NCBI GenBank assembly: GCA_963701095.1
Contig: OY969564.1
Location: 1,984,001 to 2,048,000 of the forward strand
From: an uncultured Methanoregulaceae archaeon
GTDB taxonomy: Archaea; Halobacteriota; Methanomicrobia; Methanomicrobiales; Methanospirillaceae
Direction: 5' to 3'
Length of the DNA: 64,000 bases
Part shown: piece after piece, positions 18,001 to 24,000 of the stretch
Layout: every line of letters begins with the position of its first letter
Numbering within the stretch: position 1 is the stretch's first letter
Made by a program: the position numbers

Positions 18001-21000
18001 ACCGGTATTACCGCTTGTTGGTTCGAGGATGATCGTATCTTTTTTGATCAATCCTTGCTTTTCGGCCTCATCGAGCATCGCAACCCCGATACGGTCCTTG
18101 ACACTGCTCAGAGGGTTGAACGATTCAAGCTTTACAAAAACCGTTGCGCCAGAACCCTTACTCAGACGGTTCAGCCGTACAAGCGGCGTGTTGCCAATCG
18201 TTGCTGTAATATTTTCGTAGATCTTTGCCATTCCGTTTCCCTTCCTGACTCTGGAATCTCCCTAGGATCTGGTGAGGTTCCGGAAGTTCACAATTGTTAA
18301 TTGTCCGGAGCCAGTTATTATACCTTGTTTTCCAGCAAAAACTGCATTCCTGATCAGGATTTATGAATAATACTCTTACGAAGATTGACATTTAGCGGCA
18401 AAATATGACGCAAAATCAGGATATAATACATCTCCCGCCTCATATTACGTGTTCACACCTCTGAACAGGAAGACAGTCATGAACACACACCGCGCGAATA
18501 CCGCTGGACTCTCATCAGGCCCGGATGCACCCCGGTCGTTGCCCGTGTCTTTTCCGGCATTGTACCGGTAAGACCTGTGGAACAGTTCACTCGTATCAGG
18601 GGCTCAGGGCAGTATTGTTGTCCCTTGGAGCTCGCTAGAACAGGTTCACCAGTGACTGCATTCCTCATAATCCGCGGAATACCTGCAGTCCTTGGTATGG
18701 GTCCGTGAGAATCAATCCTGATTTCATGTCCTCGACCTCAACCAAATAGGACCATATAGAAGCACCTCGGCTGTCAAGGTCGATATCACCAGCCGTAATA
18801 AAGCCTCATGCACCACAAACACACAAACTCCGATACCACACCCGGGAGATTTGTTAGTATTTCCAGGTGAAACGTAATTTTTTCCACCTATGTTTAGACT
18901 CAATCTAGATCTATTGCAGAAAAAGTGAATATCACGAAGAAGAGTAATCCAACCTGAATATATTCGGGAAACGAGTCCATTGAAAAAGGGCCGGTGTGGC
19001 AGAGCGGTTAATGCCTTCGCCTGCAAAGCGAATGCGTGGGGGTTCGACTCCCTCCGCCGGCGTAAAAATGAGGATCACTGCCATGGAACTGTACAGTACA
19101 TTATCAAGAACTGTTGAACCGTTTGCGACACTTCATCCGGACAGGGTGACGCTCTTTGTTTGCGGTCCGACAGTATACGATTATTCACATCTTGGTCATG
19201 CCCGGACCTATGTTGTCTTTGACGTCCTTACAAAATATCTTAGGTTGACGGGTAAAGAGGTGTTCTATCTCCAGAATATAACAGACGTCGATGACAAAAT
19301 CATCTACCGTGCAAAGGAAGAAGGGCTGTCCCAGAGCCTTCTGGCTAGGAAGTTTGAGACCGAGTACCTCCGAGACATGCGTTCCCTTGGGATTGATGCT
19401 GTTAGTTATTATGCCCGGGCCACAACTCACATCCCCGAGATAATCAACCAGGTGAAACGGTTGGTCGATCGGAATGTAGCATACGTCACCGAAACCGGAG
19501 TCTACTTCAATCTCGACTCGTTTAGACACAACGGGGAACTTTCAGGACAGGAACGGGCAAAGCGTGTCAGCCGCGTTAACGATTCGACAAAGCACAATCC
19601 CTTGGATTTTGCGCTCTGGAAACTGGGTGAATTCGGGGAATATACTTGGGACTCCCCATGGGGGCGGGGACGACCAGGCTGGCATATCGAGGACACAGTG
19701 TATCTCAGAGAAGTACTTCGGGCAGCAGTACGATATTCATGGGGGGGGATTAGATCTGATATTCCCTCATCATGAGGCAGAGATCGCGCAGATGGAGTCT
19801 CTGGAAGGAAAGCACCCGATGGTGAGATACTGGCTGCACACGGGTTTCCTCACGGTAAAAGGTGAGAAAATGTCCAAATCCCTCGGGAACTTTATCACGA
19901 TCAGGAACGCCCTCAAAACATGGAATAAGGATATACTCCGGTATTACTTTTTGCTCTCCCACTACCGGTCCCCACTTCAGGCAACTGACGAAGGTTTTGC
20001 TAACGCCGCCCGAGGTCTCGATCATATACGGGCTGTTGCAACTAAAGATAAAGGAGCGGACGCGAAGGGAAGGAGAGCCTTTATCGACGCTATGGAGTCT
20101 GATCTCAATACACCTATGGCCCTTGCTGCAATCCAGGCACTTGCGGTGAGTAGAGATCTTGAGGCGTTGCGCGAGTACGGAGAGATCCTCGGGATCAATT
20201 TTCTCCGCGAGACCAGTGCCCCCCTCAGTGTTCTTCAGGATATCCGGGCAGAACTACGGGCGAAAAAACAGTTTGGTATAGCAGATTTGATCCGTCAACG
20301 AATGGTAGCTGCGGGAATACCAATTACTGATGGACCACTCTGATTGGGTTCCCCCTTTCATCAGCTTTTTGGAATCCGGAACTGCGAAATGCTCCCGAGA
20401 TTACACATATACTTAAACGCTCAATGGTGTTGCCAAAGTTCACATACGGGCGGGGAATTAAATTCATTCCTTTACCGGGAACGTGAAAGATTCAGTGAGG
20501 AGGAAAATAAAAAAATCGCGGGGGAAACAGTGGGTAACAGGTTCACCACTGCCTTAGGAAATAGAGGAACGTGCATGTAGAGGCATAGGACACATCATGC
20601 AGTAACCGCCTCTTCCAGCGGCTTGGTGTTCAGGCCGTACAGACTCTGCCTTGCATCGATGAAATAATAATGTTCAATCAAGAACTTTTCATCTTTGAGC
20701 CTGTTCAATGCATACCGCACAGTTCGGGACGGCAGGGCGGTCTCACGGATGAGATCCTTCTGCGTCAGCTGACCATTCGTTTCCAATACTTTATACACGA
20801 GCTTTGCCGATGGCGGCAGGTGCCTGATCCGTGCGAATGATCCTCCATTCGCGCTTACATTATTTTCGACAAAAACGATCCCTCATAGTGGATCACCATA
20901 GAACGTAAGAGTTCACAATTGTTAAGTCTTTCGTTTCAGGACCCATTCGTTCGATGCATTCAAACTTCATTTTCATGAAAGACACATATCAAAAAATAAA

Positions 21001-24000
21001 GGTATATCTGCTTTTTAAAGCAGGAAAAAGCCATATTCTCCCCCGAATAATCTCACCGGGAGAATATCCGATCTTTATCCTTTTCTGTGACACCGATCCC
21101 AGTGTCTCAAAATAGAGTACCAGATCCGGATCTTACTGATAAACCATGGCGTAGAAATCAGGGTATTGATTCCCATGCGTTCAATTTCCGGGAGAAGATC
21201 TTCCCATTCACAAAAAACAAGACGAGATTTTATCACGCATGAAGAGCGTGAAAGCCCATAACCGGAAAGAGAGTGAAGTTTCCCAGCCATATTGCTTGGA
21301 GAACCTTCCGGCGCTCATAACAGATTCCGACAAGGCAATTTTATGTTGATAATGATAGTACGGTGTTTGTATCTTCAGTTTAATGAGATCCCGATGATAA
21401 TGCTGATCTGAGAAACATTTTCTGGTTTTTCCAGAAATTTCCCATTAAAGTGGAGTAGATCAATTATGACATCCCAAGAAAAGGATGAACACATCCTGGA
21501 AGCTGTTGGACGGTCCCGGATTGTCATCCGGAACGGAACCATTGTGGAAATTGGAGAAGCAAAGATTACGGAATGCCCGCTGGCCAAACGTTTTGCGTAT
21601 CCTGTCCCCCGGATCACACAAGAAGCAGTAAAAGCTAACATCGAGCACCGGATGAAAGCATTCGGCATGTGCACATCCCGGAGAGACGTACTTGATATGC
21701 GCGAATTCGTAGGGTTCGGTGCCACAGAGTTGCTTGGTTTCGCATCACATGTGGGTTTGATCGATGCGGCTGTACTCGCGTGTGACGGTGCCGGGACAGT
21801 CATTGTGAGAAAACCCGCCCTTATCCAGGGAGTCGGCGGAAGGATGTCCGGGCTTATCTCTACGAGCCCTATCAAAGAGGTTATTCAACGCATCGAAGAA
21901 AGTGGCGGTATTGTTGTGGATAAAACCCACGCAGCACTCGATCAGTTTAGCGGTGTAAAACGAGCTTACCAAGAAGGCTTCAAAAAAGTGGCTGTTACTG
22001 TAGCAAGACCTGAAGTCGCAGTGCGTATTCACCAGGAATACCCTAATACCATCATCTTTGGTGTCCATGTCACAGGTCTCACCGAAGAGGAGACAGAAGC
22101 AATGGTGGGAGTTGCGGATCTTATGACTGCATGTGCCTCTAAAACCGTGCGACAGATAGCAGGTGCTAAGGCACTTCTTCAAGCAGGAGTTTCCGTTCCT
22201 ATATTTGCCCTAACAAAGCGAGGAAAAGAAATCATTATTGAAAAGATTCGTCAAACGGAAGAACAGGTTCTGATAAAACCTACAAAGCTTCCGGCTCTTG
22301 GCGAAAAACAGCCCGACCCGCTGGTCTGAAATAATGAGATATTTTTTTTTAATTTGATGTTTTTAGTTTTTGAGATCCTCTATTTTTGCAAATTCAGACA
22401 TGCCAGTGATGAGGAATTGTCTCGAAAATAAAATACCGGTGACTTATCTGCATGATTGTGTTGAGGTCCTGTTGATGCTAAGAACCGAGAAAGTGACGGA
22501 TCACTTTAAGCCGTCTGTTGAAGAAGGATCCGGCCTTTGTTTTATTACTCCAGATAATAAATCATACGCGCCCAATATATCTTAACTGTATTCAAAATCC
22601 GGCCTCAAAAACACAGTTTTAGGTCTGTAATTCAGATCAGGAAAAAGTCGCCGAATACAGAACTTATAAATAATCACGATTGTTATCTATTATGGTCGTA
22701 TTCACAATTGTGAATGTGGCTATGCCAAGGTGGCGGAGTGGCTACGCGGCTGACTGCAGATCAGCTACAACCCGGTTCGAATCCGGGCCTTGGCTTCGAG
22801 GTGTTCCCATGAATATCAGAGTCCAGAAAACATTCGAAGCACTCTTCGAACTTGAAGAGATCCGGGGTATATTCAGAGATTCTCTTCCCTCGGGTTTTAG
22901 TACCGAAGAGGAAACGGCGTTCCAGAAAAAGATCTCAGATCTCAAGGTGATTATCGTCGATCTTGAATCCGGTTCAGGAACGCCAAAAGTGACAAAAATA
23001 GCCGGAACCCTCGATGTCCGTTGCCGGGAGGAACAATATATCAACATCCACCCCATCCAGGCTGCAGGTCGTCTGACGACGGAAGCGAGAAAGGCGATCA
23101 TATCCTATGGAGACGGATATTCAACGTGCGACGCCTGCCGCAAACCGTTCCGGCTGGACAAAATTTCAAAGCCGGGTATAGCGGAGTTCCATGAAGAACT
23201 GGCAAAATGGCTCAACATGGACCAAGCCCGGGTTGTTCCAGGTGCACGACGGGGGTTCCAGGCTGTGGCAGGAACTCTAGTCAATAAGGGAGACAGCGTG
23301 ATTGTCTCTGCACTCGCGCATTATACCGAGTTTCTGGCTGTTGAAAATGCCGGTGGTATTGTGAGGGAAGTGCCGCTGAGCGCAAAAAATATCGTCACTG
23401 GTGAAGCAACGGCACAGAAGATCGAAGAGGTCAGGCGGGAGACCGGAAAACTCCCGGTGCTTATCATGATCGACCACTTCGACTACCAGTTTGCAAATGA
23501 GCACGAAATAAAAGAAATCGGAAAAGTTGCACACCAATACGATATTCCCTTCCTTTACAATGGGGCATATACAGTCGGCGTCCAGCCGGTCGATGGGAAG
23601 AAGATCGGAGCAGACTTTGTAGTCGGCTCCGGACACAAGAGTATGGCATCGGTCGCGCCGTCCGGGGTACTTGCGATGACCGATGAATGGGCGCCTAAAG
23701 CGCTTCGAACGACTGCGATAGTCGGCGACCTCACCAAACGGAAGTTTGGCATCAAGGAAGTGGAACTGCTCGGATGCACGCTGATGGGTGGGACCCTGCT
23801 TTCCATGATGGCATCGTTTCCCACGGTAAAAGAAAGGGTGCTCCACTGGGATGAACAGGTCAAACGATCCAATTTCTTCATCGACCGGCTCCTGAAGATT
23901 GAAGGGAGCAAGGTGCTCTCAGAATACCCACGTAAGCACACGCTCACGAAAGTCGATACCACAGGAAGCTTCGACACAGTCGCACAGACCCACAAACGTC

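Follow-up and report, generated by a model that had tools for sequence, protein, structure and literature searches.

Which genes does a 14-bp palindrome in this locus control, which protein reads it, and how is an uncalled winged-helix gene behind one of its copies translated? The window analyzed here is a stretch of 64,000 nucleotides from an uncultured Methanoregulaceae archaeon (contig OY969564.1, positions 1,984,001 to 2,048,000). The first-pass annotation had taken the palindrome for the operator of a sulfur regulon with g02372 as the candidate regulator and a small winged-helix protein as its possible partner. That much was retained in the present analysis, but the restriction to one family and the inclusion of tRNA-Cys(G73)-cysS were not.

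Operator sites and the genes behind them

The palindrome reads TTCACAATTGTGAA. With at most one mismatch it occurs three times in the window, against 0.01 copies expected from shuffles, and three copies were reached in 0 of 100 shuffles of the window. In the 2.6-Mb genome, two exact palindromes appear at contig positions 2006701 and 2121908, and two with one mismatch at 2002287 and 2004912. As claimed earlier, all four are located in promoters: those of cysK-cysE, the small winged-helix gene, tRNA-Cys-SepCysS-metY-metX-thiI, and g02372/nifS-nifU. The last of these sites separates nifS-nifU from the divergent g02372 gene, which encodes 113 aa and has larE-like and fdhD genes downstream. Six palindromes with two mismatches were found in the whole genome; four are within long ORFs, one is in a long gap, and the remaining one, where two ORFs converge, overlaps the very end of a long ORF. 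These six look like chance, in agreement with the earlier view of the more degenerate matches.

Genes were identified using Pfam/NCBIfam and tRNAs using ARAGORN/Rfam. The features are as follows.

16322-17287, minus strand: cysE, fused to a FeS_assembly_P domain
17299-18231, minus strand: cysK (PALP)
18287-18300: operator copy 1, TTCACAATTGTTAA, one mismatch; reads TTAACAATTGTGAA toward cysK
20912-20925: operator copy 2, TTCACAATTGTTAA, one mismatch; reads TTAACAATTGTGAA toward the winged-helix gene
22673..22686: degenerate second operator copy, ATCACGATTGTTAT, immediately behind the TATA box TTATAAATA
22701-22714: operator copy 3, exact, 10 nt 5' of tRNA-Cys
22724-22795, plus strand: tRNA-Cys, GCA anticodon, U73; heads the putatively regulated operon
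22809-24173, plus strand: SepCysS
24176-25570, plus strand: metY
25574-27055, plus strand: metX-CBS
27052-28209, plus strand: thiI

Copy 1 is positioned 56 nt 5' of the cysK start, and a TATA-like TATAATAA is found 14 nt further upstream in the orientation of the gene. The cysK and cysE genes (16322..18231, minus strand) plausibly form an operon under the predicted control of this copy; a cysK-cysE pair is likewise downstream of an exact site in Methanosarcina sp. DH2. The tRNA-Cys(G73)-cysS genes, previously counted as members of the regulon, have no adjoining site. The one at 18287 is ~690 nt away and for this reason plausibly controls cysK-cysE alone. The degenerate copy is separated from copy 3 by 28 bp, centre to centre, and the same layout is seen at nifS in locus L001 and in genome G002. 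The gap between site and tRNA-Cys is 6-20 nt in G002, in Methanoculleus palmolei (twice), and in Methanosarcina sp. DH2. The suspected error at the 5' end of the SepCysS ORF was verified; the call is too long, beginning at TTG 22680 and running across tRNA-Cys.

The exact 14-mer is present in 41 of the 101 genomes of the family and in 12 of 19 genera, and the reversed-pattern control in none of the 101. The frequent occurrence reported earlier (22/61, a different sample) is thereby upheld. The nearest relatives are named Methanoregula/Methanoregulaceae, and the family name may depend on the taxonomy scheme alone.

Five genomes of other genera or orders contain 6-10 clustered sites each (at most one mismatch) versus 0-2 for the control; in M. 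palmolei, all seven sites are inside 22 kb. The operator, a g02372 orthologue, and the winged-helix gene were found together in Methanoculleus, Methanosphaerula, Methanolobus, Methanosarcina, and a Methanotrichaceae MAG, and the proposed limitation to Methanospirillaceae is thus too narrow. Because the motif adjoins the same kinds of genes in these other genera and orders, the regulon is wider than one family, and far wider than previously assumed. Its content was checked in three genomes (G002, M. palmolei, and Methanosarcina sp. DH2), where the sites adjoin nifS-nifU, cysK-cysE, SepCysS-metY, tRNA-Cys, and nadA, as well as HcyBio, ThiF-ThiS, fdhD, cysteine desulfurases, and DUF1890/1894. What was seen in Methanocellaceae is limited to a related palindrome, TTAACTATTGTTAA, 5' of the winged-helix gene.

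The analysis supports reading the palindrome as a genuine, conserved operator for a regulon of sulfur, cysteine, and Fe-S genes, with a tRNA-Cys gene among those regulated. In Methanomicrobiales and Methanosarcinales, this sulfur-use regulon would cover the synthesis of cysteine (cysK-cysE), Cys-tRNA (tRNA-Cys and SepCysS), and homocysteine/methionine, together with thiolation (thiI, ThiF/ThiS) and Fe-S assembly (nifS-nifU, nadA). Literature searches found no prior description of the regulon or its regulator, which agrees with the earlier statement that both are undescribed, and no regulator is mentioned in the parts of PMC7585200 that deal with the ISC system of Methanosarcina.

Leader and apparent +1 frameshift of the winged-helix gene

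The gene behind copy 2 consists of a short leader and an overlapping reading frame.

20860..20899, minus strand: leader, with the RBS GGTGATCC at 20890-20897 and ATG at 20884-20886
20869-20877, minus strand: putative slip site CGT TTT TGT; P-site codon Phe, A-site codon Cys
20598..20873, minus strand: winged-helix reading frame, +1 relative to the leader ATG, with the invariant motifs HLPPSAKL and RTVRYA

The ATG begins 3 nt past GGTGATCC, which is complementary to the 3' end of the genome's own 16S rRNA, GGATCACCTCCT. The 0-frame ORF encodes MRDRFCRK and stops at 20860-20862. At this locus no ATG, GTG, or TTG was found in the winged-helix frame ahead of helix 1, and the gene went uncalled because its own frame lacks a start codon. 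No indel in the leader was detected in the contigs of three DNA runs, and none of the RNA runs contained the locus.

The sequence YTT_TGY with the winged-helix frame at +1 is found in 95 of 100 located loci from three orders. The P-site codon is TTT in 57 of the 95 and CTT in 38; the A-site codon is TGC in 50 and TGT in 45, and is thus always Cys. An Arg codon (CGT, CGA, or CGC) precedes the P site in 88/95 loci, and its variation leaves the leader peptide unchanged and gives V/D/A in the other frame. A 0-frame stop appears 0-8 codons past the Cys codon in 90/95 loci, and an SD-like sequence is located 5' of the ATG in 77/95. The winged-helix gene is apparently translated via a programmed +1 frameshift at the Cys codon, as judged from these conserved sequences. 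The ribosome would start at the ATG behind the strong RBS and translate M-R-D-R-F. YUU would then be in the P site, bound by tRNA-Phe or tRNA-Leu, and UGY in the A site, and a slip of one base onto UUU would lead into the winged-helix frame.

Since the slip would occur at a Cys codon, the supply of Cys-tRNA is a candidate signal, and the frameshift may be its sensor. Scarce Cys-tRNA would slow decoding of the Cys codon and raise the rate of slippage; when cysteine charging fails, the winged-helix protein would be made and would counteract repression. If true, the frameshift could tell the cell of a cysteine shortage. The link between slip rate and Cys-tRNA is one that we infer, and a real but constitutive frameshift, which would keep the regulator at a constant low level and have its Cys codon for other reasons such as the slipperiness of U-UGY, is doubtful but deserves weight. 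With UGU and UGC nearly balanced at the slip site, nothing points to selection for rarity of the codon, and the two codons occur at similar rates in genome G000 (TGT 2304, TGC 2937; 901 long ORFs). However, the A-site codon specifies Cys in 95/95 loci although its third base varies, and any G-starting +1 codon with a first A-site U could be obtained by UUN, UCN, UAY, or UGG. The use of UGY only, within a gene of a cysteine/Cys-tRNA regulon, would otherwise be hard to explain, and many leaders contain a second Cys codon (MRDRFCC).

Translation without any frameshift is unlikely. The winged-helix protein would then start at an in-frame GTG or at a non-canonical AUY or GGG just 3' of the ATG, and MRDRFC would be a competing uORF or an arrest peptide. 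An in-frame GTG, ATG, or TTG ahead of the invariant LPPSAKL is present in 29/95 loci, often as the GTG of ATGAGTG, and is used by public annotations, which differ on the start (66-68 aa vs 92-95 aa). A conserved ATC/ATT in the winged-helix frame, 5 nt past the ATG, could also be a non-canonical start, and mycobacterial leader ORFs with Cys codons are reported to sense cysteine without frameshifting (bioRxiv 10.1101/834739). Against this, a canonical in-frame start is absent from 66/95 loci, and the loci that possess the GTG retain the ATG, the YTT_TGY site, and the early 0-frame stop. The Arg codon changes are silent in the leader frame only, the P-site codon is always able to re-pair with UUU upon a +1 step, and the RBS spacing suits the ATG. 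A natural in-frame fusion of leader and winged-helix frame exists at one locus (L053).

Candidate regulators of the palindrome

The g02372 protein is an XRE-like HTH protein with a weak match to Pfam HTH_3 (20.5 bits vs a cut-off of 23), and no solved relative was found in a search of solved structures. Cysteines C6, C88, and C91 are present in 42/42 sequences and C102 in 39/42. An exact site begins 55-62 nt 5' of the start codon in 24/30 orthologous loci, and sites adjoin the g02372 orthologue in all five genomes of other genera. Among the 41 genomes with the exact motif, 37 have a g02372 orthologue versus 27 with a winged-helix orthologue, using author-chosen cut-offs of E<=1e-26 and E<=1e-19. 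The orthologue of g02372 is also found in 21 of the 60 genomes without the exact motif; the exact 14-mer is accordingly absent from 21 of the 58 genomes with g02372, and among the loci examined, copies that differ from it by 1-2 bases were noted.

By adjacency and co-occurrence among related, non-independent genomes, the g02372 family is most likely the binder of the palindrome and self-regulated, and the earlier proposal of an autoregulated g02372 is supported. A dimer would occupy the operator. The sites are positioned 14 nt past TATA-like boxes, or past a TATA box and a second, half-conserved site, as judged by eye from TATA-like motifs. Since they overlap the region from TATA to start, the bound protein probably represses, its own gene included. 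The cysteines are probable ligands of an Fe-S cluster or a metal, which would report sulfur or Fe-S status.

The winged-helix protein has a MarR_2 score of 19.8 bits (cut-off 27), and its predicted model superposes on the DNA-binding core of MarR proteins with a TM of 0.77-0.83 and an rmsd of 0.8-2.4 A. A paralogue pair of the winged-helix and XRE-Cys types is encoded by overlapping genes (ATGA) in G000, and such paralogues are side by side in 78/101 genomes, as counted by eye. This adjacency suggests that the two small regulators are probably partners and adds support to the partnership proposed earlier. The winged-helix protein would be a minimal winged helix and a member of the regulon whose synthesis depends on the +1 slip.

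That the winged-helix protein itself recognizes the palindrome, with g02372 as a mere regulated member or cofactor-bearing partner, is improbable. A palindrome of this family precedes its gene in 28/30 family loci (in 17/30 as the one-mismatch form of copy 2) and in Methanoculleus, Methanocalculus, Methanosphaerula, Methanolobus, and Methanothrix, in addition to the related form in Methanocellaceae. Between orders the protein keeps 60-96% identity, its recognition helix (RTVRYA) does not vary, and its model fits the DNA-binding core noted above. However, no orthologue is present in 14/41 motif genomes. Eleven motif genomes have g02372 and no winged-helix orthologue, among them G002 and G028, for which a profile search confirmed this, and G002, a single contig, has a paralogue only despite six exact sites. 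The core of 75 aa lacks the dimerization helices of the MarR targets (130-160 aa), and a homodimer on a 14-bp palindrome is therefore not obvious. The paralogue keeps the recognition helix, yet a different palindrome precedes the paralogue pair.

A third, unlinked transcription factor with both small HTH genes as its targets only is very unlikely: 4/41 motif genomes have no g02372 orthologue, but these four are fragmented or incomplete assemblies (73%, 84%, and 91% complete, and one 98% complete in ~400 contigs), the site is fixed ahead of g02372 in 24/30 loci, motif and g02372 co-occur across orders, and in patchy genera the motif follows g02372, as judged by eye. The combined reading, a conserved sulfur operator bound by a g02372 dimer with a winged-helix partner made through a Cys-tRNA-sensing +1 frameshift, is reasonably likely.

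Comparison with known systems

IscR of Escherichia coli is an Rrf2-family [2Fe-2S] repressor of the isc operon. Like g02372, it is a small HTH protein with cysteines whose gene adjoins those for cysteine desulfurase and scaffold proteins, and IscR is a self-regulated reporter of Fe-S status that acts via palindromes over its own promoter, as g02372 would be. In contrast to IscR, g02372 has no Rrf2 domain, only the weak HTH_3 match; its cofactor is putative, its promoters are of the archaeal TATA/TFB type, and its predicted regulon adds cysteine synthesis, tRNA-Cys/SepCysS, and homocysteine synthesis. SurR of the Thermococcales is a sulfur-response regulator with a CxxC redox switch, and it resembles g02372 in being archaeal, sulfur-linked, and equipped with a CxxC motif. 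SurR differs in that it has two winged-helix domains, senses elemental sulfur, and controls hydrogenase and sulfur-reduction genes via another motif, whereas g02372 is XRE-like and adjoins assimilation genes. SurR was not among the sequence matches of g02372 in the search of solved structures.

The prfB gene, for bacterial release factor 2, contains a programmed +1 frameshift at CUU UGA C. In both cases a P-site CUU (here also UUU) is followed by U, the tRNA can re-pair with UUU upon the +1 step, a slowly decoded UGN occupies the A site, and the product frame is +1; the proposed logic is also the same, in that the factor decoding the A site is what is sensed. The winged-helix gene differs from prfB in its A-site codon, which is the sense Cys codon UGY and not a stop, in its slip at leader codon 5/6, in its product, a predicted transcription factor, in its archaeal host, and in an internal G(G/U)GAUC element of putative function. 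The prfB-type family of +1 frameshifts is discussed in PMC10798248 and PMC5009743. Antizyme, as described in part of PMC8211752, likewise uses a +1 frameshift as both sensor and effector in a metabolite regulatory loop, but it is eukaryotic, responds to polyamines, and slips at a stop codon. Mycobacterial polycysteine leader ORFs are reported to attenuate the expression of downstream genes (bioRxiv 10.1101/834739); they share with the winged-helix leader a short ORF with Cys codons before cysteine-related genes and ribosome speed at Cys as the signal, and the proposed difference is a change of frame into the regulator itself instead of attenuation. Relative to MarR proteins, on whose DNA-binding domains its predicted core superposes, the winged-helix protein is half the size and lacks both the N- and C-terminal dimerization helices.

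Operator sites and the genes they adjoin

The 14-bp palindrome TTCACAATTGTGAA occurs three times in the window with one mismatch or none, against 0.01 occurrences expected from shuffles. The 2.63-Mb contig contains two exact, two one-mismatch, and six two-mismatch copies. Four of the two-mismatch copies lie within long ORFs and none is in a promoter-like position, and the six were rejected as operators and attributed to chance. The three window sites and four genome sites with ≤1 mismatch reported in the first-pass annotation were confirmed, as were the gene identities assigned beside them. 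The sites and the genes that they adjoin are as follows.

Site 1, window 18287, form TTCACAATTGTTAA; downstream are cysK and then cysE fused to an FeS_assembly_P domain
Site 2, window 20912, form TTCACAATTGTTAA; downstream is the winged-helix ORF
Winged-helix leader, window 20860..20899, minus strand
Winged-helix gene, window 20598..20873, minus strand
Site 3, window 22701, exact TTCACAATTGTGAA; downstream are tRNA-Cys(U73), which begins 10 nt after the site, SepCysS, metY, metX-CBS, and thiI
Site 4, contig 2121908, outside the window; flanked on one side by g02372-larE-like-fdhD and on the other by the divergent nifS-nifU, with ThiF, ThiS, and MoaE behind it

Control from site 1 had been proposed for both cysK-cysE and tRNA-Cys(G73)/cysS. 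The former assignment stands at a distance of 56 nt; the latter pair is not counted as controlled because it is about 690 nt away.

Archaeal repressors act between the TATA box and the transcription start. In the cysK and g02372 promoters the site is found 14 nt after a TATA-like box in the orientation of the gene. In the tRNA-Cys and nifS promoters a TATA box and a degenerate second copy 27–28 bp upstream precede the site. Judged from these layouts, the operator would extend across the stretch between the TATA box and the point where transcription is expected to begin.

The exact 14-mer was found in 41 of 101 sampled family genomes, representing 12 of 19 genera, and the reversed pattern in 0 of 101. 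The sites are clustered, with six inside 16 kb in G002, a relative assembled as one contig, and six inside 20 kb on a single contig of another relative (G011). For orthologs of g02372, a 113-aa XRE-like HTH protein with conserved cysteines, an exact site begins 55–62 nt 5′ of the start codon in 24 of 30 loci and lies within 300 nt of the gene in 27. For orthologs of the winged-helix gene, a site with ≤2 mismatches is present ≤300 nt upstream in 28 of the 30 loci examined, and in 17 of these 28 it has the one-mismatch form TTAACAATTGTGAA in constant orientation.

A search with the winged-helix core alignment, limited to one genome per species, provided 80 loci. The closest is from Methanoregula (96%), and the record titles of others include Methanoculleus, Methanosphaerula, Methanocalculus, Methanosarcina, Methanolobus, Methanococcoides, Methanothrix, Ca. 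Methanoperedens, and Methanocellaceae. Five relatives were examined: Methanosarcina sp. DH2, Methanoculleus palmolei, Methanosphaerula subterraneus, Methanolobus sp. ZRKC3, and a Methanotrichaceae MAG. A g02372 ortholog with 55–73% identity is present in all five, together with 6–10 sites per genome with ≤1 mismatch versus 0–2 for the control. The regulon had been ascribed to Methanospirillaceae; since these five genomes from beyond that family hold the winged-helix gene, the g02372 ortholog, and the sites, the system extends well beyond a single family. The operator and its regulon are very probably real and ancient.

The operator-rich islands of three relatives were annotated and are summarized below. 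The distance from a site to tRNA-Cys is 6–20 nt in the window, in G002, in M. palmolei (twice), and in Methanosarcina.

Table. Genes of the operator-rich islands in three relatives
G002: nifS-nifU divergent from a PAPS-reductase/cysteine-desulfurase fusion; nadA; thiN; g02372-larE-fdhD divergent from tRNA-Cys-SepCysS-metY-metX; DUF1890-DUF1894; a further cysteine desulfurase
Methanoculleus palmolei: g02372 divergent from tRNA-Cys-ThiF-ThiS; tRNA-Cys-SepCysS-metY; winged-helix gene; ABC transporter; nifS-nifU; NifH-like and NifD/K-like genes within the island
Methanosarcina sp. DH2: operon ending with HcyBio (homocysteine synthesis); cysteine desulfurase with fdhD, thiM, and thiE; cysE-cysK, site, g02372, site, and nifS-nifU-nadA in this order; tRNA-Cys preceded by two tandem sites

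Nitrogenase-like genes (one NifH-like and two NifD/K-like) adjoin the winged-helix gene inside or beside such islands in M. palmolei (L157:8149-12078) and Methanosarcina sp. DH2 (L082:547-1464), which hints at a sulfur-related role under shared control. The fusion of cysE to FeS_assembly_P (DUF59-like) at window 16322-17287 also appears at L159:12607-13614 and L104:3354-4313; the taxa that carry it are Methanoregula, Methanosarcina sp. DH2, and a Methanotrichaceae MAG.

Candidate regulatory proteins

The operator precedes both of the small HTH genes, g02372 and the winged-helix gene, so adjacency alone cannot identify the protein that binds it. Orthologs were therefore counted against the exact motif using cut-offs of our own, by which the best E-value had to be ≤1e-26 for g02372 and ≤1e-19 for the winged helix. 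The counts are drawn from related genomes and overstate independence.

Table. Co-occurrence of the exact motif with orthologs in the sampled family genomes
g02372 ortholog: in 37 of 41 motif genomes; motif found in 37 of 58 genomes with the ortholog and in 4 of 43 without it
Winged-helix ortholog: in 27 of 41 motif genomes; motif found in 27 of 34 genomes with the ortholog and in 14 of 67 without it

Eleven motif genomes have g02372 without a winged-helix ortholog. A profile search of G002 (93% complete, six exact sites) and of G028 found only the winged-helix paralog. The four motif genomes without g02372 are incomplete or fragmented assemblies, with completeness of 73%, 84%, 91%, and 98%, the last being in about 400 contigs. 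The recognition helices in the Methanocellaceae loci were compared with the operator variants and were not informative as to which protein binds. Because g02372 tracks the motif better than the winged helix does, and because the winged-helix protein lacks the dimerization helices of MarR proteins, g02372 is favored as the likely operator-binding protein and would act as a repressor.

The match of g02372 to HTH_3 (PF01381) is weak, with an E-value of 5e-4 and 20.5 bits against a Pfam gathering cut-off of 23. PF01381 is assigned to some orthologs in precomputed tables, and HTH_3 is found in 47–68% of the members of the neighbor clusters of g02372 in the atlas. All 42 sequences compared contain C6, C88, and C91, and 39 of the 42 contain C102. 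Fe-S- and metal-sensing regulators combine invariant residues that ligate a cluster or metal with DNA binding that depends on this ligand; the conserved cysteines of g02372 would be candidates for such residues. Members of the Rrf2/IscR family combine an Rrf2 winged helix with a C-terminal cluster whose ligands are three Cys and one His, or four Cys. Conserved cysteines are common to IscR/Rrf2 and g02372, but the fold of g02372 differs. No Rrf2 domain was detected in it at E ≤ 0.01. A fold search with its predicted model (mean pLDDT 77) gave no match at E ≤ 0.001, the best being NsrR 5n07 (E 0.61, TM 0.28), which is not significant. Membership in the Rrf2/IscR family was rejected.

The predicted core of the winged-helix protein (pLDDT 88, ∼75 structured residues) superposes on the MarR DNA-binding domain with a TM of ∼0.8. 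MarR proteins carry N- and C-terminal dimer-interface helices in addition to the winged helix and are about 140–160 aa long. The DNA-binding core is common to both, but the dimerization helices are missing from the winged-helix protein, and its MarR_2 score of 19.8 bits is below the cut-off of 27; it was not accepted as a MarR member. A sequence search against solved structures returned nothing below E 0.1 for either candidate, and NCBIfam has no family matching either one.

Each of the two queries also found a weaker paralog. In the genome of the window, these paralogs are encoded side by side outside the window (C1:1402580-1402825 and 1402822-1403130, with an ATGA overlap) as an 81-aa winged helix and a 102-aa XRE-like protein with CDVCQC. 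The pair is preceded by another palindrome, ATGTTAACAcTGTTAACAT, and lies downstream of nadX-nadC-like genes. Judged by eye, at least 78 of 101 family genomes contain the adjacent pair, in which the winged-helix gene comes first and the two genes share a strand. This conserved, translationally coupled arrangement suggests that the winged-helix and XRE-like types cooperate, and that the sulfur pair is derived from a duplicated winged-helix/XRE module. Complex prediction for g02372 and the winged-helix core, both supplied as alignments, was scored 0.00 and makes no call either way.

A second form of the winged-helix protein was observed in Methanotrichaceae (L104, L107, L118, and L139), with a ∼150-aa N-terminal extension, an ordinary start, and no leader or slip site. 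An exact or one-mismatch palindrome is upstream of the start in L104, L107, and L139; in L118 the nearest palindrome lies inside the long open frame of the extended form.

Leader and +1 frame of the winged-helix gene

In the window the winged-helix frame opens after a TGA, and no in-frame ATG, GTG, or TTG precedes helix 1. The sequence GGTGATCC, 14 bases past the operator, is a perfect complement of the 3′ end of the 16S rRNA of this genome (...GGATCACCTCCT). Three bases after it an ATG opens the peptide MRDRFCRK, which ends at a stop codon. Compared with the frame of this ATG, that of the winged helix is shifted by +1, and CGT TTT TGT lies in the overlap of the two. The contigs of three DNA runs agree over the leader, with no indel.

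For comparison, 110 loci were collected from many independent assemblies of Methanomicrobiales, Methanosarcinales, and Methanocellales, and the gene was located by script with sufficient upstream sequence in 100. The leader and slip layout is common to 95 of these. Among the five exceptions, L053 is an in-frame fusion of leader and winged helix, L057 is a degenerate copy, and the other three are Methanotrichaceae genes that encode a long N-terminal extension. Among the 95 loci the P-site codon is TTT (57) or CTT (38) and is always followed by T, and the A-site codon is TGC (50) or TGT (45), Cys in all. An Arg codon (CGT, CGA, or CGC) precedes the P site in 88 loci; changes among these codons are silent in the leader frame and give Val, Asp, or Ala in the other. 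The 0-frame stop is located 0–8 codons past the Cys codon in 90 loci, an SD-like sequence lies 5′ of the ATG in 77, and 66 have no in-frame ATG, GTG, or TTG upstream of the invariant LPPSAKL. The leader peptides are MRDRFC (38), MRDRLC (12), MSDRFC (10), MTRRDRFC (5), and similar sequences. A conserved G(G/T)GATC ends 2 nt 5′ of the P-site codon; GATC, or GTGATC, is also found in the SD complement of the 16S tail GGATCACCTCCT.

The slip site of release factor 2 (prfB) is CUU UGA C, with the stop codon UGA in the A site and a Shine-Dalgarno-like element a short distance 5′ of the slip codon; the G(G/T)GATC of the winged-helix leaders would be a candidate counterpart of this element. The winged-helix site resembles it in having CUU or UUU followed by U, but the stop is replaced by UGY. 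The P-site codon is able to re-pair at +1 in the 95 loci, and in the 66 that lack a canonical in-frame start the product would need both frames. The A site holds a sense codon rather than a slow stop, and slow decoding of that codon is proposed. Transcriptional slippage was considered as another source of the frame change and is unlikely because 38 of the 95 loci have only three consecutive T. From the conserved layout, the winged-helix gene probably requires a +1 ribosomal frameshift. Such a frameshift would account for the failure of gene callers to find the gene or its full length. Public gene calls start at the GTG after ATGA where present, which gives 92–95 aa, or at an internal GTG, which gives 66–68 aa and removes the invariant HLPPSAKL. 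Three peptide strings were sought in the supplementary files of M. mazei Ribo-seq other than files 5–8, 13, and 14, with 0 occurrences.

The layout is most simply read as a programmed +1 frameshift, in which tRNA-Phe on UUU or tRNA-Leu on CUU would re-pair with UUU one base on while the A site awaits Cys-tRNA. The slip rate would then report the supply of Cys-tRNA, since the Cys codon is exclusive and the gene belongs to a regulon of cysteine, tRNA-Cys, and SepCysS genes; the winged-helix protein made in this way would relieve repression. That the frameshift senses Cys-tRNA is a plausible but tentative reading of these sequences. More tentative still is the joint proposal that at least three methanogen orders sense cysteinyl-tRNA on the ribosome through a conserved +1 slip in a leader of six codons, where a Cys codon (YUU-UGY) is "hungry". 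The slip would gate a minimal winged-helix protein paired with a four-Cys XRE-like repressor responsive to Fe-S/sulfur status, and through a single 14-bp operator the two proteins would jointly control transcription of the genes of cysteine synthesis, tRNA-Cys/SepCysS, homocysteine, and Fe-S assembly.

The demand of methanogens for Fe-S clusters is unusually high, and part of their cysteine is made on tRNA. The literature searched describes neither a transcription factor nor an operator for these pathways, and no account of the present operator, regulators, or frameshift was found in full-text literature outside subscription journals. In the portions consulted, no such regulator is named in the papers on the M. 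acetivorans ISC system (PMC7585200) and the M. barkeri Fe/S proteome (PMC10846266). The consulted parts of a 2017 survey of tRNA-dependent cysteine synthesis (PMC5424206) note that some SepCysS genes adjoin a tRNA-Cys gene and sulfur genes and contain nothing on regulation. The sections consulted of a 2021 review of archaeal recoding (PMC8211752) list one −1 case, viral cases, and a suggested Mg-chelatase case, with no cellular +1 event, and those of the GeneTack survey (PMC3711429) do not mention the winged-helix family. If correct, the frameshift would be the first cellular programmed +1 frameshift in Archaea and a rare use of a sense-codon "hungry" frameshift as a metabolic sensor, and the two proteins would be the first sulfur regulator pair of methanogens. 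The analysis defines the operator precisely, along with two candidate proteins and a list of genes, and all of these are kept in Methanosarcina sp. DH2; as this strain is a relative of genetically tractable Methanosarcina species, the question becomes directly testable.

Assembly indels and other features of the window

The cysS gene (window 19083-20343) appears in two frames with a break near 19699-19700. The contigs of all four DNA runs have one base fewer at 19699/19700 and an extra G after 18533. The frameshift in cysS is thus an assembly error, since it is absent from the contigs of all four runs, and a pseudogene was rejected. The genome (86% "complete", one contig) may contain more such indels. 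The match of the ORF at window 15035-15781 to the YcaO profile stops at position 195 of 325, and the ORF may have been cut short by such an indel.

Only two tRNAs were found by Rfam over window 15000-30000. The gene for DUF2099/methanogenesis marker 8 (window 21466-22329) separates the winged-helix gene from the tRNA-Cys operon and is not itself preceded by an operator. U73 is an identity element for CysRS. The tRNA-Cys at window 18990-19062, 21 nt 5′ of cysS, has a G73 discriminator and that of the SepCysS operon has U73, which is the opposite of the pairing expected from this element.
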